From assembly GCA_017499595.2 (NCBI GenBank), contig CM039007.1, positions 1,612,001 to 1,676,000 on the forward strand: DNA of 64,000 nt. The letters are read 5' to 3'. The position numbers and the translations under genes are program-made. The notes below the pieces were generated by a model. The model saw only the letters and a program-made list of their open reading frames with translations. It was not told where the DNA came from and did not search any database. Source of the DNA: Psilocybe cubensis (taxonomy: Eukaryota). Positions 22,511 through 45,252 of the stretch are shown one piece after another. Position 1 is the stretch's first letter, and every line of letters begins with the position of its first letter.

Positions 22511-23935
22511 TTATGCTTGCACTTCTTCATCTTCGTGCTTTTCGTGTAGTCCCATATCGCCAACTTCTTTGGCGAATTTTTCGAAGTCTTGATCGATGTC
22601 GTCATCAGAGCCCAGCATTCTGTGAAGTGCCCGTCCAGTTTGGTCGTAGTCACAAGCGAGAGAGTACATCCAGTATGCTAGATATGCTCCTACATGACCC
22701 GCGTCAGAGTCATGGAGTGCAGCAAGGCTCCGTCCTGATGCGGGTTTAACGAGGACAACACCGTCCTGCGACTCGGCAACAGCGAGTTCACGGTTGAAGA
22801 CGTTGTGAATGACGGAGCGAGTACGTGACATTAAGGACGAAGAAGTCGATTCAGAAGAAGAGTTCGAATATGTTGAGACAGCGTCCGAATCTGAAAAATG
22901 ACCGGATACTTCGAATGTCGGGACAGCAAAGGCTTCCCAAGGGACTGTACCAGCACAATCCCAATCTATCACGCCAACAATGTGACCAGTCTCGTCTACT
23001 AGAATATTGTCACTGTGCAAGTCTCCATGCCTCATAGGGAAGGGTCCACGGTCGTCTCGTTCGTCGACAAGGGGCATCATGGCCTTACGCCATAACGAGG
23101 CAACAAATCTACGCTTGAGCTGGGCCGCGTCCGCACTTTCTCCCTCTCCCGCTTCATCATCTAACCCCGCAGCCATCGCAAGCTGTTCATACGCCTCTGC
23201 CTGAATTGCAAAATAGTCTTTGGCGCACTCAAATGGGCCCAGTCCAAAATCTGCCCCTGGACCTACTGAAACTTCCCCCTGAGCGTCAATCACAAAGGAC
23301 CCAATCCGATCGAATGTAATGCGGCTCAATTGTACATGTATGTCGGCCAGATCGTGCAAATAACGTTGTAAAATGGGGCGCTTGCTTTCGTCACCTCCTA
23401 ATGGATCGGAGGCCTCGCCAGTGACATCGTACTCGGACCCCAATTCTTCGATGGAGATCCCACAGTCTTCAATCGTTATACCGGTGATTGCAGTCATTAG
23501 AACAAATGCGGGGAAATCAGGACCCAGTGGGTTGGAAGGAGAGGGATGGGCGTGATATGAAATTATTTCGGGGATTGGGATTGTTGTACGTTGTCGGACG
23601 AGATGAAGAGCCGCTACTTCATTCAATATTTTGCGCTCGAGTTGTGCGGCAGTGTTGAAATAAGCATCCATAGGCCTCATGCCAAACCGAATAATCCATG
23701 ATGTTACGTTGTCGGAAAAAAGGAGTTCAAAGACAACAAAAGATTGACCCCATGTGTAGTGGTCCATGATTCGACAAGAAAGCCGCTGCGGGTGTAATGA
23801 GGTGGCATAGGATTCTATGGATTGATAGTGGGGCTTGAGTTGCTCGACCATAGAAGTCACCCGATTGGCATATTCTGGTTCCATGATCTCGAGCGAGGCT
23901 TCAACATCTGGCCAGTTATCACTGATAGGAGCCAT
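22511..23935 (-). CDS. Intronless APH/choline kinase-like phosphotransferase
   Basis: Single ORF (probable start MAPISDNW at 23935; ORF open to 24103); WIIRF, NEVAALHLVRQRTTIPIPEI, Brenner motif HGDLHSDNILVD, GVIDWD. Confidence 0.85.
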   Translation of the reverse strand: MAPISDNWPDVEASLEIMEPEYANRVTSMVEQLKPHYQSIESYATSLHPQRLSCRIMDHYTWGQSFVVFELLFSDNVTSWIIRFGMRPMDAYFNTAAQLERKILNEVAALHLVRQRTTIPIPEIISYHAHPSPSNPLGPDFPAFVLMTAITGITIEDCGISIEELGSEYDVTGEASDPLGGDESKRPILQRYLHDLADIHVQLSRITFDRIGSFVIDAQGEVSVGPGADFGLGPFECAKDYFAIQAEAYEQLAMAAGLDDEAGEGESADAAQLKRRFVASLWRKAMMPLVDERDDRGPFPMRHGDLHSDNILVDETGHIVGVIDWDCAGTVPWEAFAVPTFEVSGHFSDSDAVSTYSNSSSESTSSSLMSRTRSVIHNVFNRELAVAESQDGVVLVKPASGRSLAALHDSDAGHVGAYLAYWMYSLACDYDQTGRALHRMLGSDDDIDQDFEKFAKEVGDMGLHEKHEDEEVQA

Positions 23936-26900
23936 GGTGAATGAGAAAATGATAGCAAGTTGCGAATATACTAAATGCAACAGAGAATTGCTAGAGAGCG
24001 AAATCAGATGTAGATGACAGTGGAGGAGCAAAAGGGACCAGATCGTTTCTTTGGCGAACACAAACCATCCTGTGGCTGCATGTTTGAGGCGTGCATCATA
24101 CATGCCGCGTCACCGAATCAGGAGGTCCGAGTGCGGTCCGTGAATAAGCCGAAAAACACAGCATCACTGATGATGGACAGGCACTAGGGCCCTAAGTGCA
24201 CCGTCATCGTGGAAATGTCCTGCTTCTGCTCTCATCAGTGACAACACTGCTCATCGAGCGCTGTTCCTTTGGAAATCTAAAGGCTTGGCTGGTCTACGTA
24301 TCTCCAGTCTTCCCCGTCCCCGAGCCACTGATCACTGGCCAGCTCAATTCGGTTGTTGCACATCCTGAATACAGACTCTGAGTCGTAGTCTTGGAAAACA
24401 AAGAAGGTTCCCCAGGATTTCTTTCTTTAATCAATGCCAAAAGGAAACGTGAGCTTACTTGGCAATATGTTAATACAAATGCGATACTCACACCGATACT
24501 ACCTTTGAGTGTGTACATACCGGCGCCGACGCGCCTTTGGATGGTATGAGCATCTAAACTCTCAAAACATGTTGTCGGTGCCTTCGTGCAGTAGACAAAT
24601 GGTTGCAAGGAAGAGAAAAGATAAACAACCAAGATGGCAACGGAAGTTTCACGGCCGTCGGCATGTCAATTGAAGGTCAATTTGTCCTCCGAAATCCGAA
24701 ACCCGATTCCGTCAGTCAGTGAGTCGCATTTCCGCGAGTCTCTTGAACTTGGAATGAATGAGCCAGGCCGGATTTTTTTTTCGAAATCATTCATGTCGAT
24801 GGATAATCTGTTTACCTCCGACCTACCTCGTGACAAGAATAGACTGCCAATGGCTTCGCATCGTTTGCAAATATCTGAAATCCAAAAGTCCACACAAAAA
24901 TGCCTTGAAGATATCTTGTTCATTCTCAACCCACCCTACTCCAAATTCAGGTATATCGGTTGTCAATCAAAGTCCACTGCTGACCACATACAAACTCTCA
25001 TTGTGGCGCATTAGAAATAAAATTTCCTATTTTAGACATGTCCCACACCGCCCGCCAAGAAAATGACGGGGGTCACTCTTTAGTCACCTAGCAAAATCCA
25101 TACTGAGAAGTTCTTACAGAAAGAAAGGCTTTGTAGCCCTAATATAATTGCTCTCATAAATCTATGGTCGTATCAACAATAACGTGATATTGTCTGAGAG
25201 CAATTTTCAAAGTAAACTTCGTATTTTGTAGGTGAGTACCGGGTTCTTTGAATACGCAAATATGAGGCACTTCCTGGATACAAAAAGAAGTTTTCAGAAT
25301 TTGACATAACTCTCATAACCCTCGGGGGTAATAATGGCAACATTATAGCTCGGGCAGATGCTTCGGTGTCTGTATGAAAGACATCATATATAATCCAAAC
25401 TGTTCATGTTCTTTTCATCAAGGTTTTAAGCATTCCCTTCGTGTAAAAGGATATGTTGATTCCGGACTAAATCTGTACTGCTACTATAGTACTCCCACTG
25501 CTAATGGTAAAATCATATAGCCATTAACCATCCGACTCCATTTATTTAGCGGAATCTTTAATATTATATAAACACCGTGTTTGTTCCACACACATTCACT
25601 CCTCTAATCCCATGTTGCGTTATAGATTTATTAAGTTAGTAAATAGATTACTGCACGCTAGCCTTCGACGATTTTTTGCGTGATAATGTTTAGCTCATCA
25701 AAATTGCATCTACCTTCACTCCGAGGCACGTATAGTACAGCTCGCTGAAATGATTAAGCTAAGTTAAACATATATATAAGAATACCATACGAATCAAGTA
25801 CACACTGTCGAGCTCATTGCCCAGAAATTTGGGTCTTTGCTAACCTAGAACATTAGTACTCACAACTGCCCACGACCTGGGCGCTCAGTTTCACAAGAAT
25901 ATAAATAGCCCGAAATTTTAGGAGCTGACAAAGCCTACTCTACTAACGGCGATCAATGATTGAAATGCCGATGAATACACCGTTGTGAGATTTTCACGCC
26001 ATGAAGTGAAGATTCTGGCCTCGGGAATGAATAATGCGGTCCTGCGTGCCTACTTACGATTGAGCGTGATGAAACTCAGAGATGGATGCTTTCGTCAACC
26101 TTGATGTCAATTTAGAGCGCTACGTTGATTCGACGTGTAAGCGCCGCCGCACGATACGCGTGTTAATCCCCCCCCACATACACAATTTCCTTCACTTCAC
26201 TTGAAGGAAGAAATTTGTTGGAAAACCTGACGCCTTGACATTCTTTCAGAACGGAATTATCATTACAACGGCTGCTGCGGTACGCCTCCGTTGCAACACA
26301 GGGCCTAGATCAAACATCCCTCAGCTTAGTCCACCAATTCTGTTGTTGCCGTGTTGTTCAAAAATTGCGTTCAGATATGCCGTCACGAAGTTAAAGCGAA
26401 GTTCCTGGGGAAACAATCTGATTTCTTATTTTTTCCTTTTGTGACCTTTTACACATTGTTAAGAATATCAGCACCTTTATTCATCTATTTTGGACACATA
26501 TGCCACGTTTTGTGGTGAGTAAGCTATCGTACCCACGCTGAAATCGTCGCCTTGACCCCTGCCAGAGAAGAATGACTGGTCCTGATACCTTCTCTCTAAT
26601 CCTGTATTGACTAAAACGTCATTTTCCGGGACTTTCGATGCTGAAATCCTCCACAGGCATGTTCAGGTTCTTTCTCGAGTCGAAGAATGTGTCTTGATCA
26701 GGAATGTAGTTTCGGAGTAACAACCTTAGCGACGAGTAGCTCCCTTTGCTATCCCAATTTTTGCCATGAACAGTGAATTATACTATCATGGCATCAGGAA
26801 CCCGATAGTACGGCCTGGATATTGCTGCGAACTGTTCAGAAGTCGTCCATCGTGTTCTTGTCTCCCACCAGTGGCATGAGTTTTTGAAACCCGTGGTACA

Positions 26901-28841
26901 GTGCTTTTAAGTCGTTCACATTTTTGCGTTATCAATTGCTTCTGGTGAGAGTGTACCGCAGTAAACTACACGCTCCGACTCGGATAAATTATTGGTCAAA
27001 TAAATTCAATGGAACCTCCCGTATGAGAAATCGCGTATGTTCCAATTCGAGAAAGTCGGCTATTGTTGGTGCTGAAATTTGAGACCCTTGCCAATATCGA
27101 AGCGTTCAGGACGGCCGTAAAGCTACTGCTACTGAGCATCGAGACTTGTTCAATGAAGACCCATTGTATTTTGCCTGATGAAAGTCAATCGATTAGAGAT
27201 AACATGGAGGAATCGTCTGTATCTATCTCGGAGATCCTGTTTGTCCTGGGATATTACATATATAAAAATACGTGAAGTTAGCCCGAGGCGGAGGTACAGT
27301 GATTCTGTGGAACAGAAAGCTTGGCACTGATGAACATCAAGATCATCATCGTATGAGCTATCAATAGAACTATTTGCCCGTTTATTCCCAGATTGAAGGC
27401 AAGTACATGTTGAAGCCGAGGTTCATGTTCGACTGATTGACAAATTTGACAAATTAGATGGGTAACATACTTGGTGAGTGTCAACCAATCTGAAGCTCTA
27501 GGCCTTAGCTGAGCCGCTGGAGTGGTAATAGTAGACGTCAGAATTCCAAATTCTTATTTATTTCTCGTCTGGAACATAAATCGATTGATGTGTTCGGCGG
27601 GTACGAGCAATCTATATTTTTTAGAACTTGGACTTCTGTCATGGGAACACTTAACATCTTACTGCTAATTCGCTGTTAATTCCGCCTATTATTTCTCTTT
27701 ACCTTTGACCAGATGATCAAGGTAATTATTATCACAAATATCATACTTAAGTATGTCAGTATCCTCCTCTTAGCATCTTAATGCTTGATCATTCTTTTGT
27801 GCAAAAAAAGCACGATATTTGCACTGATACAGTTTGGTAGAAGCATGATAAATAAGGAATTCATATCACTCGTCGCGGGTACATTATCCAGGAAACGTTT
27901 GGTGGGAACATATGTACTCCATCGTCAGAGCGTACCGACCCTGGTTTTGCCCTTAGTCAAGCTATCTCCCCTTTCTTTGGGGTTTACAAAGATCGAGGGA
28001 CAAGGGACAAGGGCCTGATATCATACATTTCTTCTGTTAAGGCAATATTTAAGTTTTAAACTCACAAGGAGGACAACGATCTATAATTGGTTCTTAAAAG
28101 ATGTCATATCTGGTGACGCTTCGTCGAATCGAATCATAGATCACCTTCCATGTCAAACTCCATCTTTCAAGACTACAACCGACCATTAGAGCAGTATAGA
28201 CGTTCGGCCCATGTATGACAGATCGCACTGTCTACGTACCACTGCCTGACAAGAGGGTGCATACTGTCCTTCGGAACAAGGCGTTGTACCTCTTTGATCT
28301 TGACGTGCGACATATGCCGTGTAGTGAACCCCTCAGATTAATGAGTATCGAAACTGATAGTCAGAGCTGATGTATTAATTGTTCTTACACGCTTGATCTG
28401 TAGCAAAATCAGATTACGAGTCGAAAACACGATTAACCAAAGGACCCCTCGGACGCTGGTTTACATGGCTTACAGTAAACCCCACTTGCAAAGCAAGCGT
28501 CAGTTCTCTTGGTCCAGCTTTCTTCGCCCAAATTGAGAGGTACGAGTTTGAGATTAGATTGAGTTGAAACACCTTTACTGGTCCCGAAGCCACCGAGTGT
28601 ACATAATTCTGACCAACACGTATTTATGAGATAGGGTCTGACACGGCTCACCCTTTGGAGATCTCATTGAGATTTTTGTCGGTTGAACACCATAAACTCA
28701 CACGGAAATTTAAAAACCCCTTTCACATTGATCCATGCGAAACTGTAACTCATGCATACAAACATAAAAGGCACGTCTTGAACGCATAAAAGGTGAGCAT
28801 CTCAGAGGACGACTTCCCATACCGACCTCCCAACACCGACA

Positions 28842-29232
28842 ATGTCATCCTCTCAAGTGAATTCCTCTACAGAGGTAAACTCATCACATCTTTATTTCCT
28901 TGCAGATACTCACAACTGGGCAGCCTTATCATATGGCTCATTACGATGGACCAAGAACACCCAAAAGAACGCCGATGGCATGCCAATTTTGTCGAGGTAG
29001 GTTTGGTCATTCACAACCTAACACAAAAAGTTCTGATTTTGGTTGCCTGTGACGGAACACTAGGTCGCAAATTAAAATGCGATGGAATGCGGCCCTCCTG
29101 CGCTAACTGTAATCGACGTGGGTTTCCATGTGCATACGTTCCAGTCAATGTGTACGTCTTTTGCTCTTACCATTAAAGTCAGATTCAGGAAATTTTAATA
29201 TGTAAATCGCGTGTAGGTCGGAATCAAAATGA
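28842..29232 (+). CDS. Very small Zn(II)2Cys6 binuclear cluster protein (~69 aa, 4 exons)
   Basis: Spliced MSSSQVNSSTE|PYHMAHYDGPRTPKRTPMACQFCR|GRKLKCDGMRPSCANCNRRGFPCAYVPVNV|SESK*; complete C-x2-C-x6-C-x6-C-x2-C-x6-C motif. Confidence 0.75.
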
Positions 29233-31644: not shown

Positions 31645-32212
31645 GCACCAACTATTGCTCGTAAAGAGAAATCATAGATTTAGCGCTGGACCATGATCGA
31701 TGACAGCTCGCCGTGTGTAGCATGTAGGCCGTATGTACCCATGCGTTACGGGCGACGTGTGTAGGTTCACTCATTGCCCATGTGCCAAATGGAAAGCACG
31801 CCAACCTTCGCAATGCGGTCGCCAAAAGGATATCACGACCTATAGACGCGTCTCTAGGCTGTGCTTATGGCTAGATACACAAGACCGCATTCTAGGAATC
31901 TGGTATGAAGGATCCCGATGTGCAGAAAGTGACAGTTATTCTCAACGGGCGCTATCGTGCGGGTATAAACGACATGTCAACCCGCAACCAATGATCGCAA
32001 TTCAGCAACAAACGGCGAATTTGAACAGTAATAATATTGAAGGTATATACTTTTCAAATTGATAATGGACATGTACTGGAAGATGAGTGAAGCAAGCAAA
32101 ACTGAATGAAAACGACAGTAAATTGAAAGAAAGCGTGATCGGCGAAATCGTCCAATGTCTGGATCATAACCGCGGCACCAATTGAGCCAATTTGCCGTCG
32201 GAATGTCGGAAA

Positions 32213-35200
32213 TCAGGGACCAGAGGATAGAATCTCTTTAGACACCAGTATTCGATTTGCCAACGTGGTCAGGTTAGCATCGGCTACGATGACCTCCGGG
32301 GCATATTCTACATCGAATATTTGCTTGATAGCGGAGCATATTCGCTTGGCCTGTCGTTCTGACCAAAAACTAAAGTCGTCTGGATCGCGACCCTCGTGAT
32401 CAAGCTCTGATTCTGCCTCGAGTATTCCCGAGTTGGAAGGCGTGTCCGACGTGTGAAGAGGGAAATCGCCGTCTTGTGAGAGTTTTTTGGTTGGCTTGCA
32501 GGAGAGGGGTATGAGGGAAGGATCTTCATCGAGACATAAAGGTACGATGCGTTTAAGCGATTCACGAACGGTGGTGAAGTTGACATCTTCCGGTTTGTCG
32601 ACTGTAAAACCGATCATCTTCAATCAATTTTGAAACATTTGGTTAGGAGAGATGTACTCGCCATAGATCTCAATCGGCCCGTCCATACTCATAACGTTGT
32701 ACTTACCATCATGGTGATAACGAACCTGTTAGTATGTCAAATTTCGTCAATATATGGAACAAAGAAAGTTTCCGTGATTTGCTTTAATAATTTACCTCAT
32801 AGCGCCCAACCAGCCATGGTAGGGTATTTCCCTTGAAGGTTAGGGTACCTTTCTCAGCGTCGCGATGGGGACTCGGAGCCCTGTCAAAACCAAGAGGCAC
32901 ATCCCCATCCCACTCTTCATTGTGAACAGGAAGCCACATGCCCATTGATGAGGTTTTTGTAACTTGCTTCGATTTATTTGCACCAACCTAGAGGAAAAGA
33001 ATCCATGAAGCGATAGAGGGATAAATGTAGACAGCCGACTCACGCGGTAGAGACCAATCCAATCTGTTGGAATGATAGTCGGCGAGCGACTTGGTCGCTA
33101 AGTCGTTATCTTCCTCTTGTAGTTTATCTTATCATATTTTTTCTAGATTATTCTACTATAGGTTCCGTAGTTACTGTAGGTACAACCGTGTAGCTACGTC
33201 GTGAATCTACATCTTTTACCACCACTGCGCATTATACTTACAACAGGTTATGGGCCCCGAGAGGTCATAACTAAAGCTCGCTTTGTTCTAAACTCGTTCT
33301 ATTCTTATCGATCTATATCTAAACTTGTACTCGACGTCAAATGGCTGACTCGACAACCGCGGAAGTCAACATCGGCGGATATCGCATCGACACACTGAAG
33401 GCCCACAATTGGATGCCGTGGAAGCGGCGCATGCTAGCAGTACTGGTGGACCTCGGACTGGAGAAATACGTGGACGGCACGTCGCTTCGACCAGGATCAG
33501 CGAAACCGAACGCACCCACGGCGGAAGAAATCGCAGCTCAGACAGCGTGGGATAAGGGAGATGCGAAAGCGCGATGCAGGATCGAACTCGCGTTAAGCGA
33601 TGCGGAGATGGTACACGTCCTGGGAGCGCGCACGGCGCGCGAGATGTGGACGCAGTTGTGCACAGTGAAGGAATCCAAGGGACGACTCGGTGTTTTGGCG
33701 ACACGACGAGCACTTTTCCGGGCAACCGCAGAGGAGGGATGCGACATGGCAGAGCATATCGCAAAGCTACGTCAATTCCAGGAGGAGCTGCACATCATGG
33801 GCAGCATTGTATCGGACGAAGATTTCGTCATGATTTTGCTCACCTCGTTGCCGGAATCTTGGGAGAATTATGCGTCATCCTTTTTGGGCTCGAGCGGGAA
33901 TCGTCCTACGCTCACTTCGCAAGAGCTCGTTGGTGTTCTCCTTGAAGAAGCTCGTCGTCGGAAGGAGCGTGGAGGTGATGGTGCCGGAGGGACTACGCTT
34001 CAAGTTCGTGGAGGTCAAGGGTCGTCGGATGGAAAGGGTAATGGTTCGAGGGATGGCAGCGGCGGGAAGGAGTGCTATAATTGCCACAAGATGGGGCACA
34101 TTTCGAAGGATTGCTGGGCGAAGGGCGGAGGTCGTGAAGGAAAGGGTCCGAGGGGGCGGAAGACGAAGAATAGAGGGCGGACGAATCAGGCTCGGGAGGA
34201 CGTCAACACTACGCTCAACGATGAGGTTGCGTACCACACGTACTCGACGTCAAACTTCTCTCGTTACGACTGGCTTTACGATTCTGCAACCACCAGTCAC
34301 GTTTGTCCCGTCCGTGAAGCCTTCATCGAGTATACGCCACTCGTTAATTCCTCCGTTCGTGGTGTCGGAAAGAGTCCAGCTATCATTGCAGGCCGCGGAA
34401 CAGTCATCCTCAACTTCGATGTCGACGGGCAGACGATTACTCATCGTTTGAAAGACGTTTTACACATCCCTGAAGCCGAAAATGCTTTGATGTCGCTCGG
34501 AAGGTTTGAGAGGGATGGGAGGAGCTCGTCGTTTAAGAATGGGAAGGTTCTTTTGATGGATGCGAAGGATAAGGTTATTGGAAAAGGGTCGAAACGCGGT
34601 CAGATGTATATTCTTCACGCTCGCGCTCAGCTTAATTCAGGGGAACAGGTCAACTACGTCTCGCCAAAACTCACCTGGGATCAATGGCATCGTCGTTTTG
34701 GCCATATCTCAGTGTCGTCGTTGCAGAAACTCGTCCGGAACGATCTTGTCGTCGGTCTTTCCGTGGACGAAACGTCTATTCCATCCCCATCGTGCGAGGC
34801 GTGCATCCAAGCGAAGCAGACGCATAAACCTTTCCCTGGAGAAGCAGAAAATCGATCCACGGTTCCTGGAGAGCGAACCATGAGCGACGTATGGGGTCCT
34901 ATCGGAACACGCTCGGTAAATGGATTTTATTACTACATTACGTTTATGGACGACGCGAAGCGATACAACGGCGTGGTTTTCTTGAAGGACAAGAAGGAGG
35001 CGGCGAAGGCGATTGAGAATCATGGGGAGCGAGTGAAGAGGAGGTTTGGGCAGTATCCGAGGTACATTCGCATGGACAATGGCAAGGAACTCGTGAACGA
35101 GCGGATTAAGAAGTGGGCGGCGGAGAGAGGCATTGAAATCGAGACGACGGCGCCATATTCCCCATCTCAGAACGGCGTCGCAGAGCGCTACAATCGTACG

Positions 35201-38200
35201 CTGTTGGAGCTAGCACGTGCGATGATTATTGCGAAGAATTTACCTCTCTTTCTCTGGGACGAGGCGGTCAATTACGCGAATTATTTACGCAACCGCGCGC
35301 CTACTCGAGCACTCGACGACAAGACACCATATGAAGGCTGGCACAACAAGAAACCGGATGTTTCTCACCTTCGGGAGTTCGGATGCGATGTATGGGTGTT
35401 AGACGAGACGAAGGGGCTTTCGAAGCTCAAGCCACGGTCGAAGAAGATGGTATTCGTTGGTTTTAACGAAGGCTCGAAGTCTGTGCGTTATTACGATCCC
35501 AAATCGCGCACAGTGAAGTCATCGCGAAACGTATCGTTTAACGAAAACGAAACGCCGCAGAACGTCGAAATTCCTGGATTATCGTCTGAGGGGGAGCGTA
35601 ACGAATCGACAGACGTTAAATCCAGCGAAAACGAGCCAGAAACCGTCAAGAACGAACCTATTTCGTCTACAGCATCGATTCCACAGCCCAGCATACGTCG
35701 ATCAGCTCGTGAACACAATTTTGTTGATTACAAGAAGGCAAACAACCCGAATGCTCGTTTACCGACTACACGATCCCAAACGACTCTAAACGCACCACAA
35801 ATCGCTACAAAATCGACCGAGACCTCGAGCGCAAAGTCTACAGCAACGGAGCAAGCAAACATTGTCAAAGAACAGCTGTGGGGCGCGATTTTAGACGATT
35901 CGGAACGTGTCTTTGCCATGCGCGAATTGGACGTACCTCGGACACTTGAAGAAGCTTTGGAAAGCTGTGAGGCAGCTGCGTGGAAGGCAGCTATGGACGA
36001 AGAAATTGAGACGCTTTTACGGATGGGTACTTGGGAGATGATGAAGATTCCGGATGGAAGGAAACTGGTTGGATGCCGTTGGGTCTACGCGAAGAAACGG
36101 GACGAAAACGGGAACGTCATCAAGTACAAGGCCCGACTAGTCGTTCAGGGATGCTCTCAGAGACCTGGTACAGACTACAGCGAGGACGGAACATTCGCAC
36201 CAGTCATGCGATTCGACACGCTACGCTCGCTACTCGCATATTCGGCCGTACACAATCTCAAGATGCGTCAATTCGATATAAAGGGTGCATATTTGCATGG
36301 TTACATCTCGGAGGAGATATATATGGTCCAACCACCCGGTTATGACGATGGCACTGGTCAGGCATGCCGTCTCATTCGTTCGCTTTACGGTCTCAAGCAG
36401 GCAGGAAACGTATGGAACCATGAACTCGATAACGCTCTCACTTCATTCGGTTTTACGAAACTCAAGAGCGATTACTGCTGCTACATCCGTCGAGCTGAAA
36501 ACGGCGATTTTACGATTTTGGTTACCTGGGTGGACGACATAATCAGTTTCTCAACAAACGACTCGCTCAACGACCAGCTGGAGCGAGAATTAGGCTCGAA
36601 ATTCGACGTTAAATCGATGGGTCAGCCCTCGATGATGCTAGGATTCAAGCTCGAGCAAAAGGACCATTACATTTCGCTCTCGCAAGCACACTACATCGAC
36701 AAACTCCTCGAGAAGTTTGGTTTACAAGACGCGAACCCCGTTTCGACGCCTATGGACCCGAACGTGCGATTGGATAAGGATGAAGGTGTTCGGGAGGATG
36801 GAGACGGTCAGGGGGAGGTTAATTCGCGTTTAGGATTCAGTTATGCAACGGTCATCGGCTCGCTCATGTATCTGGCACTCGGAACTCGTCCAGACATCGC
36901 GTTTGCGGTATACAAACTCGCGCAATTCACCAGCAAGCCGAAATCGACTCATTGGACCGCTGTCAAACGTATATTTCGTTATCTGAAGGGCACGCGCAAT
37001 CACAAACTTACTTACGGCGGCGATTCGCAAGTTTTGGACGTAAATCTCAATGTTTATTGCGACGCCGATTGGGCTGAAAACTACGATCGGAAATCAACTA
37101 GCGGATACGTGGTTACGATAGCAGGCGGCGCTGTGGCATGGAGCTCGAAGAAACAGAATACGGTCGCACTTTCAACCGCTGAAGCCGAATACGTTTCCAC
37201 AACGCATGCGGCGAAGCAAGTCTTATGGCACCGCTCACTCTTCACGGAGCTCGGTTTCCACATTCCATCAACGTCAACCATCTTTACCGACAATACGGCA
37301 GCCATTTCGATTGCGCATCATCCAGAATTCCATGCCCGTACGAAGCACATTGACATTGCATTTCATTTCCTACGCGACTTGGTGGAGAAGAAGACGCTCG
37401 ACACGGTTTACATCAACACTTCAAACAATTTGGCAGACGTTTTCACAAAGGCTTTACCTCGCGTTGCACACGATGGTTTCACGTTGCAGTTGGGAGTTTT
37501 GGCCGACTAAGGGGGAGTGTTGGAATGATAGTCGGCGAGCGACTTGGTCGCTAAGTCGTTATCTTCCTCTTGTAGTTTATCTTATCATATTTTTTCTAGA
37601 TTATTCTACTATAGGTTCCGTAGTTACTGTAGGTACAACCGTGTAGCTACGTCGTGAATCTACATCTTTTACCACCACTGCGCATTATACTTACAACACA
37701 ATCTTTGCGAGAGTGTTTATGGGGAGCCTGCCATTTGATAGTGATTTGTTCACCCAAATAGAACGCTAGTTTTCCTGTTGTAGAGCTCGGAACTACCGAT
37801 ACGTGGTATTTGGAGGTGTCATATGATGAAATGTCATTTGCAACACGACTAAATGACAGAATAAAAGACAGCGAAGCGTGAGCAAGGAGGGGCGACTCGC
37901 GGCTGAAGAAAGGAGCGAATACACTCACGTGATCACCAACTTCTCTCGCGATTGGCGAAGAAGGATCTTCGTGTCCTGAACAACTTCCGAGAGTCTTGGC
38001 GCTGCTACAAGATAGAGAGCAACCCGGGGATAGGGAGAGGAGAAGGCAGTTCGGCAACGGTCAGTTATGTCACTTGTCTGTTTCGCAAAGCGCAATAAGG
38101 TTTTACACTCACATCTGGCCAGGAAATCCTCAACAGCATCCGCAGTCTCCTCGTAGACCTTGTCAAAGGTGCCAATGACTTCTCTCGCGACCCTCTTCAA

Positions 38201-41190
38201 TTCTGGAGCGTGCCTTCCCGCACGAGACTCGAGTAATTTCGCGTTTTTGCTAGCGACATTCTTCATAACTTTGACAAACCCTGCATCTTTGCGGAGGGAA
38301 TCCCCATAAAGTTTGCGCATATGTGGACTGAAGACGGTTCAGATTTGTCAGTAATCGTGAGAAGACATCTATAACGGGCACGACATACTGTTCCACGCTG
38401 CTAAGGAACCACCAGTTGGCAAGATGGCGAATTACGGCCAGCGCCAGTACCAATTTACTACCACTGATCAGTGCTAGTCCAAAGTAGCCAGCTCCTCCCA
38501 TGGCTTCGGGATTGTTCAGATACCTGACCGATAGCGACAAAAAAGATTAAGTCGATCGGATTGCGGGTATCGGCAGGAGGACTAACCGGTAAATGCCTGT
38601 ATATTCGAGGTGTGCAGGGAATTCTTCCATAAAGAAGTCACCAAAAAACCACCCTGGAAACATAACATAATCACATCAATCGAATAAAGTGGGGAGCTTG
38701 AACATAAAACTCCAACACACCGAAAATACCCAGCACTTCGTAAGACTCCATTGTTGCCCAGACATGTAGAGCAATGAGAATCTAGAATGATCAATCAGAA
38801 GGATTGAAACTTGACCGGGTGGGGAAGGAAATGGGCAAAACGTACAGCGCCGATGGTGTGTCGAAGAAGTTCATTGCCAACAGTCCAATTGTATGGCACG
38901 CTGTAAGCCTTCCAAGCGACGCCAATGCAAGAAACTGGCAACTCATATTTAGGACCATACACGATGATTTTAAAAAAATAGCATACGGACCGTAGGTCAT
39001 ACACATGCTCAGATTGTAAATAGCCTTCCAGTTGGAAAATGCTTCGATAACGGCGACTTGACCCCCATCTTGCTGAGCGTAATCGTAATGATAGTTCTTG
39101 AGATAATGCCTGACGAGAAATTTACTCTCACTTTGTGCACGTAGGAGCAACCCAAGTCCAAAGTAGTGAAGACAACACCACGCCAGTGCATGCACAAAAT
39201 GAAGGATCAGGGAGCTCTTGGGGGACAGGTCTGGTAAAAAGGAAATAGCCAGTCCATACATCATAATCAAGACAAGCATGGCGTCTGTAGCTCTATAATC
39301 GTCCGCAAAACAGTAAGTTACCGACGTCTGGTCTTACAGCAACGCGTGGTGCCTTACCTTAAAAGGTCTACGTTTCGTAAAACCACTGCATCGCGCCTGA
39401 AATACTTGTTGAGAAGGTCGTGCTGGGACAGCACTTTCCTTCTCTGCGAGGCGACGGTATTGATGCTCCTCGGGCTAGAGGCCATATTCAGACTGATGCT
39501 CTCAGAATCACCATTTGATGATGAGATAGTGCTGTCGATGGAATAGTTGGGCATGTGCCGCGACAGTTTAGGTGCTTTGGGTTTATTCGGGAAGTTTTGG
39601 GCCTTCGCGGCTGCCAAAGGCAACATCTCGTCATCCATCTCTGTCTCTGTCTCCAGATCCGTCTCCGTGGCAGTCTCAGCCTCGGTAATTGCAGGAGTTG
39701 ATAGATAAGAGCTACTTTGCGCAACAGGTGTGCCGTTGGTCGATGGCGCGATGCTCGACCCTTCAGTGATTTTGGAATGATCGGATGGGAAAAGTGGGGT
39801 TCGTTTGGCAATCGCCTTGCGTTTGCCGTAAAGTCGTTCAATGTCTGTGAAAGCAATATGCCGTTCGTCTATTTTCGACCAAAAAAAAAACTTTTGGAGC
39901 TTACGTGGGTTCTCAAACAGAACAAGGAAAGCAAACTGGGCAGCATGGCCAGCCAAACTGACAAACAACACCGCATAACTTCCGGAGATGAGGGAAAGAC
40001 CGTAGTAGCCAGCATAGCCTGTCAAAGGAAATGAATAAGGGGGAGAACAATTGGCCCGATTAGATTTTATTTTGCTCTCTCCGCTTAAAAATGTCAAAAC
40101 ACACTCACCGACAGAGTACATGGGGTGAGGCGCCAATTCAAATACACCATCAAAGACTAATGCCCCACGCTGGAAGAAACAGTCACCCCAATACCAGCCA
40201 TAATCCTTGACTACATTGTGGGCCTCGGTCTTAACCCATAGATTGAATGCGATCAATGCAATGCCACCGACCCATCTATTGATTTGAAGTATCAAAAGTT
40301 GCACATGGATAGGATCATAAGTAAATGTACCTCATAATATGAACAATTACTGATAAGTCTTCTGGGACCCGGAAACATGAGAAGGCAAACATGCAATAGG
40401 ACAGAAAATCACTTCATAAGGACAGATGGGATCAGCATGATAATACATAGAGATTGAAGATGAGGTGTGACAAGGGAAAGAAAAGACATACTTGACCAAG
40501 ATTACATCCACAGCCTGACGAAACAAAAGCCAAGTGTTATATTCCAAAGGTAATTCCTGGATAAGAGCAGTGTCATGTCAGCGCCTGGGCGGCCAATGTT
40601 CAGTGATGATCAAATCCCAACTTACATCGAATGAGTAATCCTTGCCCATTTTATCGACAAGTTGTTTCTTGATCCAGTTCCTGACAGCAGGTCGCCTTTT
40701 CTCATCAAGCCATCCGCGTCTTTGAACTTCCCTTTCGATCCATTTCTTCTTACTTTGTTTGGTAAGAACCCAACCAAGGCCAGCGTCATATGCTGCGCGC
40801 CAGAACGCGAAGTAAAAGAAAAAGAAAATCTGAGCAGCCTTGCGAGAGAGGGCAAAATAGATGACAATCTGGAGGCCCAGAAGTCCCAGGTTCAAAAGAT
40901 CAAGATGGCTTTTAGGATAACCAGGATGGAACAGGGTGGTTAACACGTCATGAGTTGTTGGAACACGAAAGACTAGAATAGTCGCGTCAATTCAATCGAT
41001 AGTTGGTAAGATCATGATATCCAACGAACTTGCCTTCGCCTGAGGGCGTTTTCCCCCATACTATTTCTTCCTTCGGTGCATCTGATGTATGATCAACATC
41101 CGGAGTCGCTGACTTAACAGTTGCTGACCCCGACTCTCCTTTCTCGAAAACATTCTTCCTCTGACGCAAAAAGCCTTCAGACGACGGCAT
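32213..41190 (-). CDS. CHO2: Phosphatidylethanolamine N-methyltransferase, with a 3' coding exon interrupted by an LTR retrotransposon
   Basis: [97 protein letters not shown]. The motif RKDWIGLYR is split by the element at 33065-37698; downstream exons (to 32213) remain in frame. Confidence 0.93.
33065..33245 (+). repeat. 5' LTR (181 bp)
   Basis: TGTTGGAATG...TTACAACA; identical by eye to the 3' LTR. Confidence 0.97.
33341..37510 (+). CDS. Copia Gag-Pol polyprotein (1389 aa)
   Basis: Zn knuckle [14 protein letters not shown]; protease [17 protein letters not shown]...CEAC; integrase [47 protein letters not shown]; RNase H CDADWA, RTKHID; PR-IN-RT-RH order is copia-type. Confidence 0.98.
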   Translation: MADSTTAEVNIGGYRIDTLKAHNWMPWKRRMLAVLVDLGLEKYVDGTSLRPGSAKPNAPTAEEIAAQTAWDKGDAKARCRIELALSDAEMVHVLGARTAREMWTQLCTVKESKGRLGVLATRRALFRATAEEGCDMAEHIAKLRQFQEELHIMGSIVSDEDFVMILLTSLPESWENYASSFLGSSGNRPTLTSQELVGVLLEEARRRKERGGDGAGGTTLQVRGGQGSSDGKGNGSRDGSGGKECYNCHKMGHISKDCWAKGGGREGKGPRGRKTKNRGRTNQAREDVNTTLNDEVAYHTYSTSNFSRYDWLYDSATTSHVCPVREAFIEYTPLVNSSVRGVGKSPAIIAGRGTVILNFDVDGQTITHRLKDVLHIPEAENALMSLGRFERDGRSSSFKNGKVLLMDAKDKVIGKGSKRGQMYILHARAQLNSGEQVNYVSPKLTWDQWHRRFGHISVSSLQKLVRNDLVVGLSVDETSIPSPSCEACIQAKQTHKPFPGEAENRSTVPGERTMSDVWGPIGTRSVNGFYYYITFMDDAKRYNGVVFLKDKKEAAKAIENHGERVKRRFGQYPRYIRMDNGKELVNERIKKWAAERGIEIETTAPYSPSQNGVAERYNRTLLELARAMIIAKNLPLFLWDEAVNYANYLRNRAPTRALDDKTPYEGWHNKKPDVSHLREFGCDVWVLDETKGLSKLKPRSKKMVFVGFNEGSKSVRYYDPKSRTVKSSRNVSFNENETPQNVEIPGLSSEGERNESTDVKSSENEPETVKNEPISSTASIPQPSIRRSAREHNFVDYKKANNPNARLPTTRSQTTLNAPQIATKSTETSSAKSTATEQANIVKEQLWGAILDDSERVFAMRELDVPRTLEEALESCEAAAWKAAMDEEIETLLRMGTWEMMKIPDGRKLVGCRWVYAKKRDENGNVIKYKARLVVQGCSQRPGTDYSEDGTFAPVMRFDTLRSLLAYSAVHNLKMRQFDIKGAYLHGYISEEIYMVQPPGYDDGTGQACRLIRSLYGLKQAGNVWNHELDNALTSFGFTKLKSDYCCYIRRAENGDFTILVTWVDDIISFSTNDSLNDQLERELGSKFDVKSMGQPSMMLGFKLEQKDHYISLSQAHYIDKLLEKFGLQDANPVSTPMDPNVRLDKDEGVREDGDGQGEVNSRLGFSYATVIGSLMYLALGTRPDIAFAVYKLAQFTSKPKSTHWTAVKRIFRYLKGTRNHKLTYGGDSQVLDVNLNVYCDADWAENYDRKSTSGYVVTIAGGAVAWSSKKQNTVALSTAEAEYVSTTHAAKQVLWHRSLFTELGFHIPSTSTIFTDNTAAISIAHHPEFHARTKHIDIAFHFLRDLVEKKTLDTVYINTSNNLADVFTKALPRVAHDGFTLQLGVLAD
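37518..37698 (+). repeat. 3' LTR (181 bp)
   Basis: Direct repeat of 33065-33245, followed by TSD CAATC. Confidence 0.97.
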
Positions 41191-43696
41191 TTTGTTGTTG
41201 GACGTCGTGCACTAAGAAGAATCGACGTGGCTCACAGCGTGCGCCTCGCTTAACGATAGCAAAAAATGAAATTTACGTGCGCCCCCTGTCGGACCCTGCC
41301 ACAATTCAACGAAAACACGCGATATTTACTCACACGAAGGCTGTAGGCAAACACAACCAAGTAAGATTCGGTCCGGTGTAGCCTTTGGGGACTGGTTAGA
41401 CGAGCAAGGTGCATTGTACTATGTAGTCGTCTTCAACAACCTTAATAGGAGCAAATTGTTTTCATTGGACATAAGAAGAATCCATGGTTGCATTAGTGAA
41501 GCGCCAGTGAGCCATCCTCTGATTCAGAACTGACTTGGAGTGATTCAGTTCCACCTACGAACGACCTGCCCTAAATATACATTATATAAATATTTAATTT
41601 TTCCCACCCTGTCAAACTTCTCATCACTTCGGCCACCTTCGACTTCTCGACATATCGCCTTCCATTCAATTTTGTTCTGTTGCCCGAGGCTTGCGAAAAT
41701 CATCAGCACTGAGTTCTATTCCTCTACTTTTTCAGTCTGAACCCGACTGTGTCGTTCGCAAATACACCCTGGTAACTCGAGGCTCGATTCACACCCATAC
41801 CGAGTACGAGAGTCGTTAAAAGATAAGGGGGAGAACATAGGGTATTTATTTCGGCCGTTCCCTTGTTGGTAGGCATCGACCTTACGAGATATCCAAAATA
41901 TCAATACATCTTTCATTTCTTGCGAATCTGTGATATACCTGAGTGCTTGCCTTTACTGTAAATCGCTTACCAAGTCATTGGCAGGTTCAATTCATCTGAT
42001 TTGGGCATTTCATCAGCCACAGATTTTTTCCAACTTTGTTCAAACGTTTGGCAAGCTATCCGTGATACTTGTTATGCAGGGCTATGAACTTCTGAGGACA
42101 TCATCCTTACGAGCAAGAGATTTCCGCTCCTACCGTATCATGGCGGAGCTTGGCAGTGAGATCAACTCGTAGCTTTACGCGTCGGGTCTGAGCATGTAGC
42201 AGTCCGTAGCTCATACAATTCGGTTTTATATCATGCCCAGTGTGGCCTGCGCTATTTTAAAATGAACGATGGACACACATCCTTTTTTAGGTTCATATGC
42301 CGGATTCACTCACAACGTGGATTTTGACCTGTTCAGACACTCCGGCTCCGAATGTGACCGGCCACGCTCTCGGAGGATTCTCAACTTACTTTATGCATCA
42401 GGTTTGCGATATTGTCCCTATTCAGTTCGGTCAAGTAACCGCATTCTCAGGGATGGGTACGTCGCCTGAGCGTCACCGTTTTCAGCTCCGTTAGTCGGTG
42501 TTCGTGATGACGAGGGCCACTACAGCACCAAACTTTGGGGATCCTTGGAGTAAGTGCGGGAGACACAGATTGAAGATTTACTTGCTAGCGACCAACTAGG
42601 GACCACAGCGCCGATATAATCACGCCACTGCGGTTAAAGCTTTTACGACATAACACGCCAGCGACTAAATAGCTATATCTCGCTTGACCCGCAGCAAACT
42701 GCGCTCTTGGCGTCCACCAAACCTCCAAGTAGACGCCTAAGTCACTAGCGCCGACAGGTACCAACAGGTTAAAAATAGAACTACCATTCAAATGTACATA
42801 CGGGAGTAAATGAAACCAGGAGCCGCGCAAAGCCATGGAGCAATTGCGAAAGGATTAAACACCAGATAGATTGAACCCTGCTCAGCGTCAGTGTCATGGT
42901 AAGAAATACGTTAAGTTATCGGGACAAGTACGTTATCCCATGTGCTCAGCCTCAAGGCTGGGGCATTCTGACGTTAGGGAAAAATAGATGGTCCTCACGA
43001 ATCACAGTCAACCGCATATTTTTCTTGCTGATAAAGAAATCGAGATTTTTTAAATTATATGTGCCATTGTAATGATTTCAGAATCTACAACTTCATAGGC
43101 ATGGAGTTCGAATAAAAATTCTTTCGACCAATAACTTAGGACTTATCAAATGTTACTGAAATGATTTGCCCAATTTTGAACAACGAACGCTCAGCAATCA
43201 CAGTCACATTTATTTGACAGAGTATTCAAGGACAAAGAACACAGAAAACTAATATATACAAGAAAAAGAAACGGGATTGACTGAAAGGAAAAGAGACCGC
43301 GATGGGAATGAAATTATAATCGCACTTGGATCAAGGGAACAAGTTTACTCGTCGCATGGAAAGAGATTTGTGGAGAGAACCGATATGTGTACTTTATGCG
43401 CGGAGGAAAATGCATGAATCGTGATGATCCCTTGCAAGCAAGAAAGGGAATAAGAAAAGCGTACGATAGAAGAAAAAAGAGACGAGAGAGAGAATTCAGA
43501 TTGGTACAATCGATCTCGACGTGGGGAGACCTAGGCGAAAAGTAGGACAAGCTCGATGAAGTATAGGAATACAAAGCTCGAAGACTTGGGACCAGAAAAA
43601 TAAGCATATAAGAAACAGGACAGTGAAGAAAAGAAGAATGAGTACGATAAAGGAGAGTGTAACAAACCCTCAGCCTTAACATCGATGCGTCATAGT

Positions 43697-45252
43697 TCAC
43701 TCGGTTCTTTGTCGCTTGCCGTCGCGTTCGCCCTCGGCATTGGCGGTGCTGCTTTCAGTGGCGGCGGTGGCGGCCTCTGCTCCATCGGTACTCCTCCTCT
43801 TAGTACCTGCAGCACTCTCATCTTTCGAGGCCGGGGCCGAGCCAGCATTCACGCCGTTCATATTTCTCAACACTTCGAGCTCGGCCTCGAGTCTTGTGCG
43901 CGCCATACGCTCTTCTTCCCACAGACGCTTGACCTCTTCGAGTTGCGCCTGCAGGTCACCCATGGCCTGGTCCATGAGAAGCTTCTCAAGGGTCCACTTC
44001 TCGATATTGCGAGCTTCGTTCTCTTTCAAATGATGGATGTACTGCACAGCTCGAGAAAGGATGGCGCCTTTGGCCTTCTCGCCAGACCCACTGGGTACAA
44101 TGCGGCCAAGCTCGTTGATGCCCTCGTTGATATTGCCGCGGCGTCGACGCTCAACCTCTTTCTACATTGACCGAATTTTAGTTAGAAAGCTGCAAAGTCG
44201 ATAGATTAAAATTACAAACATGATTATCCTTCCTCTGTCTGCTCCATTCGTCACTTCCCATGGTGGCGCTGCGTCCACCACGGCGACCAGTTGTAGGAGC
44301 AGGAGCAGGTGGGGGAACGAATTCTGCATTGTCACCATCCTTTCCGGAGGTACTTGCACTCGCATTGCCAGCCTGCTCGCCATCGTTGCGGTTCGTTTGC
44401 TGGTCTGGATGCTGAATTGGAGCGGGGGCGGCTTGCATTGCCACAGCACTCAGTTGGCCAAGGTTGGGAGGGCCGCGGGGATGTGTGGACGGGCCTGGGT
44501 CGTTAATTCCTGGCAGACCTCCTGGGCCGCCAGCTTGGTAGTGAAGGGGTAATTGTTGTCCATACGGTTGAGCTTGGGCAAGGTTGGACAGCGTTTGAGC
44601 AGCATCCTCTTTGTTGCCTTGGCCTTGGTCGGGTATCTGAGAAAGAAATTGACCATTACGTCAATAAGATTCTCCCGAAATTTAGCAGAATACCGGATGG
44701 GATTTAGAACTATGTCCAGGGTCGAGGAAAGGAAAAACTGAAACCAACGAGAAACCGGGCCTTGAAAAAAAATGAAAAGTTGAAAAAATCTACAGAGGCT
44801 TTACGGGCGACATCTTGGGAAGGCATCCAAGGTGCACCTGCACAGTAGACCTTGTTGCCTCCCCCCTTCTCCCCGTGACTGACCCAGACGCGCTCGTGCT
44901 CTGCGTCGCGACAGTCACGTGTAGGTTAATTAACCAGAAAGCCCGCAACATGCCTTCCATCCCAAAACCACAACAATCGATAACGCGGACAGCATCGCGG
45001 CAAAAGAAATGCAGAAAGAAGGTCCGGCACACATCATTAAGGGAAGTGGATGCTTACTTTACCGCCCGAGAACATGCCAGGCAATGAACGAAGAAGGTTC
45101 ATGATCTGGGACTGATCGAGTCCGCTGAGCTGCATTCCAGCAATGTCTCCTGAGGCGTTTGGAGGAGCATTTGCAGGAGCTGGAGCACCTGGAGCAGGAG
45201 GGGCTCCGTGGGACAAGGCAGGATCGTGAGTTGCGGGTGTTGCGGGTGCCAT
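43697..45252 (-). CDS. psiR: bHLH(-zip) transcription factor of the psilocybin locus (Cbf1-like), 3 exons
   Basis: MAPATPATHDPALSHG...; bHLH RKDNHKEVERRRRGNINEGINELGRIVP...KAKGAILSRAVQYIHHLKENEARNIEKWTLEKLLMDQA; exons ~45058-45252, 44220-44636, 43697-44161. Confidence 0.93.
44914..44921 (+). promoter_or_regulatory. Cbf1/CDEI-type E-box GTCACGTG in psiR intron 1
   Basis: Exact RTCACGTG match inside the 421-bp intron 44637-45057. Confidence 0.4.

Follow-up and report, generated by a model that had tools for sequence, protein, structure and literature searches.

The DNA analysed here is a 64,000-nucleotide stretch of the Psilocybe cubensis genome (the window; GenBank assembly GCA_017499595.2, contig CM039007.1, positions 1,612,001 to 1,676,000), and it carries a Ty1/copia long terminal repeat (LTR) retrotransposon inside a coding exon of CHO2, the phosphatidylethanolamine (PE) N-methyltransferase (PEMT) gene, beside genes of the psilocybin cluster. 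CHO2 is responsible for the first methylation of PE on the way to phosphatidylcholine (PC). Three results are new: (i) the insertion is polymorphic in the species; (ii) the P. cubensis protein record P0001 represents, by its alignment to the window, the truncated allele; and (iii) the element is one of a transcribed family that has further insertion sites. Taken as a whole, we consider it quite probable that the filled site is a recent, ordinary insertion allele of CHO2 with reduced or lost function, and that its adjacency to the psilocybin cluster is coincidental. Transposon insertions into genes are common, and nothing in the present one is surprising in kind.

Structure of the interrupted CHO2 gene

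CHO2 lies on the minus strand, from the start codon at 41190 down to 32213, and has 18 exons. The translation of one CHO2 exon (325 residues) matched 1,856 proteins; PF04191 was present in all 120 of the listed matches, and nearly all of the named proteins among them were PEMT. The best match was P0001, recorded as 'phosphatidylethanolamine N-methyltransferase [Psilocybe cubensis]', which aligned exactly to the window in 15 blocks. P0001 contains 2 stretches of the Pfam PEMT domain (PF04191, E 9.8e-54), a domain present in 44 of the 44 Agaricomycete CHO2 proteins that we aligned; its 839 residues compare with about 960–1,130 in most of the other orthologues listed. A tblastn search revealed that the CHO2 proteins of Flammula and Galerina were colinear with the window over 41190–32216. 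By sequence, the host gene is CHO2, a class I PEMT, and orthology suggests that its product would convert PE to monomethyl-PE with S-adenosylmethionine (SAM).

The element divides the gene into 2 parts. The upstream part (37699–41190, minus strand), delimited by the P0001 mapping and the Pfam matches, consists of coding exons 1–14 and the first 149 nucleotides of exon 15, and encodes residues 1–837 with both PEMT domains. The downstream part consists of the final 16 nucleotides of exon 15, severed by the element (33044–33059, minus strand), and of the orphaned exons 16–18 (32213–32987, minus strand), which are located at 32987–32796, 32725–32662, and 32601–32216 and are followed by the stop codon at 32215–32213. 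These boundaries were taken from a homologue-based model together with run X10 (one of the sequencing runs described below), whose joint over the insertion point reaches the severed end of exon 15 and whose spliced contig supports exons 16–18. The run search named no holder of RNA; X10 contigs lack the CHO2 introns, and X10 was thus recognised as cDNA or RNA. Its contigs confirmed 11 CHO2 introns. Together, the 2 parts of the gene predict an intact product of about 1,057 residues (837 + 220). The last intron (32602–32661, minus strand) is a GC-AG intron, as the homologue alignment had predicted and as the X10 joint 32601->32662, with ends CT..GC, then showed; the other X10 intron joints, which include 32723->32794, have ends CT..AC.

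The element itself is a 4,634-bp Ty1/copia LTR retrotransposon located in exon 15 of the 18 exons, antisense to CHO2. It is enclosed by 2 copies of the target-site duplication CAATC (left copy, 33060–33064; right copy, 37699–37703), and its 5' LTR (33065–33245, plus strand) and 3' LTR (37518–37698, plus strand), each 181 nucleotides long with TG..CA ends, are 100% identical. This LTR pair is the sole such direct repeat in the window, and the first 30 nucleotides of the LTR occur 2 times against 0.00 expected by chance. Between the LTRs is a single gag-pol frame (33341–37510, plus strand; 1,389 residues and a stop codon), in which Pfam matched Retrotran_gag_2 (residues 31–210), zf-CCHC (244–258), Pol_BBD (311–393), gag_pre-integrs (434–493), rve (509–608), SH3_retrovirus (668–739), and RVT_2 (897–1138), with no separate match for a protease or an RNase H in the frame. 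The frame runs from gag and a zinc knuckle through a β-barrel/protease region to the integrase, which is ahead of the reverse transcriptase, as in other Ty1/copia elements. A putative polypurine tract, AAGGGGGAG (37509–37517, plus strand), read from the letters of the element, abuts the 3' LTR. A tRNA scan detected no tRNA gene within the window with which a primer-binding site could be matched. The first-pass annotation, made from the letters of the window and a list of its open reading frames, had placed a copia element inside a coding exon of CHO2; the identical LTRs, the CAATC copies on both sides, the gag-pol matches, and the mapping of P0001 bear out this placement.

Comparison with other Ty1/copia (Pseudoviridae) elements of the Agaricales revealed the same short TG..CA LTRs, 5-bp duplication, single gag-pol frame, and integrase located before the reverse transcriptase; the LTRs of the present element, with their 181 nucleotides, differ in being very short. 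The nearest listed polyprotein, P0149 of Agrocybe pediades, is 64% identical at the protein level and has the same 6 Pfam domains, and no P. cubensis protein of the family was among the matches listed. The element is autonomous-looking.

When the element (4,634 bp) and a single CAATC are taken out, the minus strand again reads RKDWIGLYR, as the first-pass annotation had stated. The restored motif agrees with that of the CHO2 homologues: all 44 of the 44 aligned proteins have D826, W827, G829, Y831, and R832, and the insertion falls between D826 and W827. With the element present, the CHO2 frame would run, if the transcript is unspliced, into a premature stop in the 3' LTR read antisense (37647–37649, minus strand), which is the stop that had been annotated at 37647. 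The insertion removes 220 of the approximately 1,057 residues (20.8%), so that the truncation described earlier stands and its figure of roughly 200 residues is replaced; both PEMT stretches, described earlier as the spared membrane methyltransferase regions, are retained according to Pfam. The coding capacity of the filled allele is 839–854 residues at most.

The lower of these 2 values corresponds to P0001, the sole P. cubensis PEMT among the listed matches of the database search. The C-terminus of P0001 (...HSRKDCV) ends at 37695, 4 bases and 2 residues into the LTR. The LTR contains a candidate cryptic intron of 68 nucleotides (37627–37694, minus strand; GTAAGT...CAG), directly followed by TAA, and use of this intron would account for the ...RKDCV ending. 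P0001 is, to judge from its alignment, the annotation of the interrupted CHO2 allele rather than the normal protein of the species, and comparative work relying on the 839-residue record would wrongly conclude that P. cubensis is without the conserved CHO2 C-terminus. Two other splicing routes were considered. Splicing out the element by the one obvious pair of sites (donor GT at 37694, acceptor AG at 33065–33064) was rejected as a candidate, since 8 bases too many would remain and the frame would meet a stop in exon 16. Exon 15 has 165 nucleotides and is in phase; skipping it would keep the frame and delete 55 residues of the β-sandwich described below.

The lost C-terminal region and the probable consequence of its loss

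The C-terminal region removed by the element is at least as conserved as the region that is kept. In the alignment of 44 proteins, 54 of the 227 columns of the lost part (24%) are invariant, versus 138 of the 826 columns of the kept part (17%). The C-terminal 264 residues of Flammula CHO2 used as a query returned 266 proteins, and the 119 other listed matches were 52–84% identical to it.

The AlphaFold model of Flammula CHO2 (P0002) suggests what the lost region may form. The mean predicted local distance difference test score (pLDDT) of the model is 57.9, which is poor overall; β strands lie between residues 792 and 917, with ordered blocks at mean pLDDT of about 78–85, and helices lie at 1006–1049. 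The 10 best rows of a Foldseek search were the SKICH domains of NDP52 and TAX1BP1, together with the N-terminal domain of HECW2 (best E 4.9e-4; probability 1.00; TM score on the target 0.62–0.69). In a second structural alignment (VIA), the 8 top rows were the NDP52 and TAX1BP1 SKICH domains over model residues 784–933, with Z scores of 10.7–11.3, and generic Ig-like folds trailed at Z scores of 8.6 or below. The Pfam SKICH family (PF17751) reached 18.8 bits in P0002, below its cut-off of 23.4, and matched 20 of the 44 CHO2 members at E <= 0.01 (best E 7.2e-6). According to the model, the CHO2 C-terminus thus holds a predicted SKICH-like β-sandwich. In P0002, this sandwich and a conserved helical tail occupy residues of about 785–920 and 996–1045, after the second PEMT domain of the Agaricomycete CHO2.

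The predicted CHO2 domain shares its β-sandwich fold with the SKICH domains of human NDP52 (CALCOCO2) and TAX1BP1 (root mean square deviation 2.4–4.8 Å over 97–108 aligned residues at the Z scores given above). It differs from them in that the identity is 15–25% and in that it is carried by a polytopic membrane methyltransferase, not by an autophagy receptor. A search of a literature collection found no paper joining Cho2 and SKICH, and Pfam matched none of the CHO2 3' exons when they were taken singly. A lead from a protein atlas, a 'putative PEMT' cluster with SKICH on 20% of its members and commonest in Ascomycota, scored 0.87, which is below the trust level, and was set aside.

Mapped onto this model, the element severs the predicted sandwich about one third along its length and removes two thirds of it together with the conserved helical tail. 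The orphaned exons 16–18 encode the remainder of the SKICH-like domain and the tail.

We propose that the element integrated antisense into exon 15 in the lineage behind the assembly, making the usual 5-bp duplication, and that the filled allele would yield a product that keeps both PEMT domains, ends in an unfolded stub, and lacks the tail. Three considerations tip the balance toward reduced or lost function of this allele: conservation of the lost part equals that of the catalytic parts, 3 further introns follow at a long distance downstream of the early stop, and transcription of the element opposes that of CHO2. Such an allele may be tolerated, because choline in rich substrates could feed the Kennedy route to PC or because a second nucleus could supply an intact copy.

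Known fungal mutants give a basis for comparison. Saccharomyces cerevisiae cho2, Aspergillus oryzae pemA, and Aspergillus niger cho2 are loss mutants of CHO2/PEM1 affecting the same step, from PE to monomethyl-PE. In the parts of these reports that were available, the mutants are described as having growth and morphology defects that choline remedies, with SAM accumulation in yeast; deletions of the CHO2 orthologues in Aspergillus led to poor growth on minimal medium unless choline was supplied, and in a low-PC strain of A. oryzae hyphal differentiation was altered and choline restored the aerial hyphae. The P. cubensis filled allele differs from these mutants in its basidiomycete host, in being a natural truncation of the C-terminus and not a deletion, and in the retention of the catalytic domains.

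Several points weigh against an insertion allele of reduced function: (i) the truncation, decay, and antisense effects of the filled allele are ones that we infer; (ii) the filled allele rests on the assembly and on the hallmarks of transposition; (iii) P0001 probably comes from the same assembly as the window and hence lends no independent support; (iv) the structure model, poor overall, is good only in parts, which include the β-sandwich; (v) a dikaryon with one empty allele would be expected to show no phenotype; and (vi) by analogy with A. oryzae PemA, part of the CHO2 C-terminus can be dispensable. On the last point, the available part of the Aspergillus literature describes PemA as naturally without a large C-terminal region that is present in A. 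niger Cho2; the same source reports a growth defect of the pemA deletion strain, so that PemA evidently works without that region.

The filled allele might accordingly be neutral, with a truncated protein that keeps its methyltransferase domains and a C-terminus that is regulatory or dispensable. The 2 PEMT stretches in the 839-residue product fit this explanation, as does the implied function of the shorter PemA. We nevertheless consider it improbable, with a small chance of being correct: invariant columns are denser in the lost part than in the kept part, a break inside a folded β-sandwich would, according to the model, leave an unfolded stub, and the message would have an early stop upstream of 3 introns as well as a 4.6-kb antisense element. 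The explanation that we prefer remains that of an allele with reduced or lost function. If this allele can be made homozygous, it would offer a natural way to probe what the tail and the SKICH-like domain do in fungal CHO2.

Empty sites in other samples and further copies of the element

The first-pass annotation had proposed reads across the insertion site in other isolates as a check. A run search listed 15 runs with their shares of the sampled words of the window: 4 runs of one study (X1–X4), one of which may be the source sample of the assembly, had shares of 0.96–0.97, 5 runs (X5–X9) had shares of 0.77–0.83, and 2 runs had shares of 0.62–0.63. The insertion site was compared over 32000–41500 in X5, X6, X10, and X14, which come from 4 studies, and the empty site was found in 4 of the 4 runs. 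In each, the joint 33059->37699 skips 4,639 bases, which are the element and one CAATC (4,634 + 5), and the single CAATC left at the empty site matches the target duplication of the element exactly.

The 4 runs document the empty site in different ways. In X14, which consists of raw DNA reads, 21 reads from 16 start positions cross the joint, and the depth of the flanks is about 21–24 beside the site and about 21–35 over all flank bins; the joint count is about that expected for a sample with the empty site only. Contigs of 17,582 nucleotides in X5 and 15,779 nucleotides in X6 bridge the empty site, and such contigs could hide a minor allele. In X10, a spliced contig of 1,290 nucleotides spans the insertion point, with 18 letters on the short side of the joint, and continues through CHO2 exons 16–18. 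Samples with the empty site therefore express full-length CHO2 mRNA; X10, being an empty-site sample, is uninformative on the transcripts of the filled allele. Furthermore, none of the reads or contigs of the 4 runs agrees with the copy of the element in the window at positions 33811, 35928, and 36007, which indicates that this copy is absent from X5, X6, X10, and X14. The insertion is thus private or at least polymorphic, and it is not fixed in P. cubensis.

The X10 contig also bears on the age of the insertion. It has 0 other letters relative to the window over 32066–32601 and 32794–32985, and the 3 CHO2 exons beyond the element have open frames and usable splice sites, in agreement with the earlier description of the orphaned exons as still open. 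Because the insertion is polymorphic and the orphaned exons are undecayed, it is recent, as had been proposed from the open exons. An attempt to date it by LTR identity was uninformative, since 0 differences in 181 nucleotides bound the age only to millions of years.

That all 4 compared runs have only the empty site would also be expected if the assembly had created the insertion artificially, or if a few long reads had captured a rare somatic event unrepresentative of the strain. We hold this to be very unlikely. A misjoin would not yield a duplication of 5 bp in exact agreement with the empty site on both sides of a complete element with identical LTRs. In addition, the higher word shares of X1–X4 compared with X5–X9, among which X5 and X6 are verified as empty, fit the presence of the window's copy in X1–X4, an indirect argument in that one of these runs may be the source of the assembly. 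A genuine insertion in the lineage behind the assembly therefore remains our reading, and it makes the site a clean presence/absence marker, useful for tracing lineages beside the psilocybin cluster.

Other copies of the element were detected in the same runs. The raw-read depth of X14 over the element is about 5 times its flank depth, and a different flank at the LTR start was found in 21 X14 reads and in one X6 contig. The element family therefore has other insertion sites in P. cubensis; the estimate of copies comes from the depth ratio of a single raw-read run and from the foreign flanks at the LTR edge, contig depths being rough values and not copy numbers. The family is also transcribed: an X10 contig of 4,457 nucleotides covers 33222–37677 with 65 differences and 5 gaps at a depth of 66, the CHO2 contigs of the same run being at depths of 19–33. 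These observations point to a copia family that is currently mobile and transcribed in P. cubensis. Seven X14 reads join 34835->35752, skipping 916 bases, which reveals that the family includes one or more internally deleted copies in this sample.

CHO2 and the neighbouring psilocybin genes

Two psilocybin genes, PsiK and PsiM, were recognised in the window. PsiK (54334–55191, plus strand) matched the solved structure of 4-hydroxytryptamine kinase, 8zic, over 286 residues (E 3.6e-192), and one exon of PsiM (61914–62384, minus strand) matched psilocybin synthase (E 1.1e-18). MFS-like frames are located at 51.4–53.0 and 58.4–59.5 kb. A basic helix-loop-helix (bHLH) transcription-factor gene (43700–44660, minus strand; Pfam HLH, E 2.5e-11) is found on the flank of the cluster, 2.5 kb from the start of CHO2. 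CHO2 is about 13 kb from PsiK, and some 16.6 kb separate the insertion point (37699–37703) from the PsiK frame at 54334. The earlier wording that the insertion lies next door to the psilocybin cluster is physically right and rather loose.

The excerpts available from a preprint describe a transcription factor once called PsiR that flanks the cluster and is found at the corresponding position in Galerina and Agaricus, which are non-producers. The bHLH gene of the window is probably this flanking factor; the literature search found no paper on PsiR with helix-loop-helix. On the strength of these excerpts, the nearness of CHO2 and the cluster may go back to an old arrangement of genes and not to a functional link, and the place of the filled allele beside the psilocybin genes would then be an accident of gene order.

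A functional link would be provided if the truncated CHO2 were a hypomorph, linked to the cluster, that spares SAM for PsiM and so alters alkaloid yield, membranes, morphology, or sporulation, the allele having been selected unknowingly by growers. The premise of the first-pass annotation that PE methylation is a major SAM sink in yeast is supported by the available part of a preprint, in which yeast without Cho2 accumulates SAM and phospholipid methylation is a substantial SAM sink. The distance from the insertion to PsiK, the absence of the allele from 4 of the 4 other runs compared, which makes it lineage-specific, and the altered hyphal differentiation of low-PC A. oryzae are also consistent with this proposal, and a paper on S-adenosylhomocysteine treatment and psilocybin content in Gymnopilus is on record. 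Against it, choline-rich substrates would bypass CHO2, the adjacency is perhaps plain old synteny, and linkage is functionally meaningless for a diffusible metabolite. The literature search found no paper joining P. cubensis with a PEMT enzyme, and none joining P. cubensis with structural variants. We regard the proposal as highly doubtful. Its fullest form, in which a natural hypomorph of one cultivated lineage lowers the largest SAM drain, raises psilocybin relative to norbaeocystin and baeocystin, perhaps alters cap or spore development through low PC, and was picked unknowingly by growers, is barely credible. A coincidental position of an ordinary insertion allele is what we favour instead; should homozygous strains be obtained, the allele would provide a natural test of whether phospholipid methylation and PsiM compete for SAM.

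Other frames were recognised in the window. Long open frames at 46656–48818 (minus strand), in the interval that separates the bHLH gene from the first MFS gene, have no firm Pfam match, only a weak one to PAS (E 0.0063), and show kinase-like motifs discerned by eye; a Pfam search of 10 further frames between 47.7 and 62.4 kb returned nothing firm. Solved-structure searches of 3 other window frames gave no match, and these include a single frame of 532 residues at 22514–24109 (minus strand). The latter has a phosphotransferase (APH) domain in Pfam (E 2.4e-13) and represents, besides PsiK, a second gene of the kinase family, some 30 kb away from it. Downstream of CHO2 are WSC-domain frames (12992–14290, minus strand) and a Zn(2)-Cys(6) transcription-factor exon (28790–29173, plus strand), and the segment 31165–31389 has a weak match to 2OG-Fe(II) oxygenases (E 0.014).

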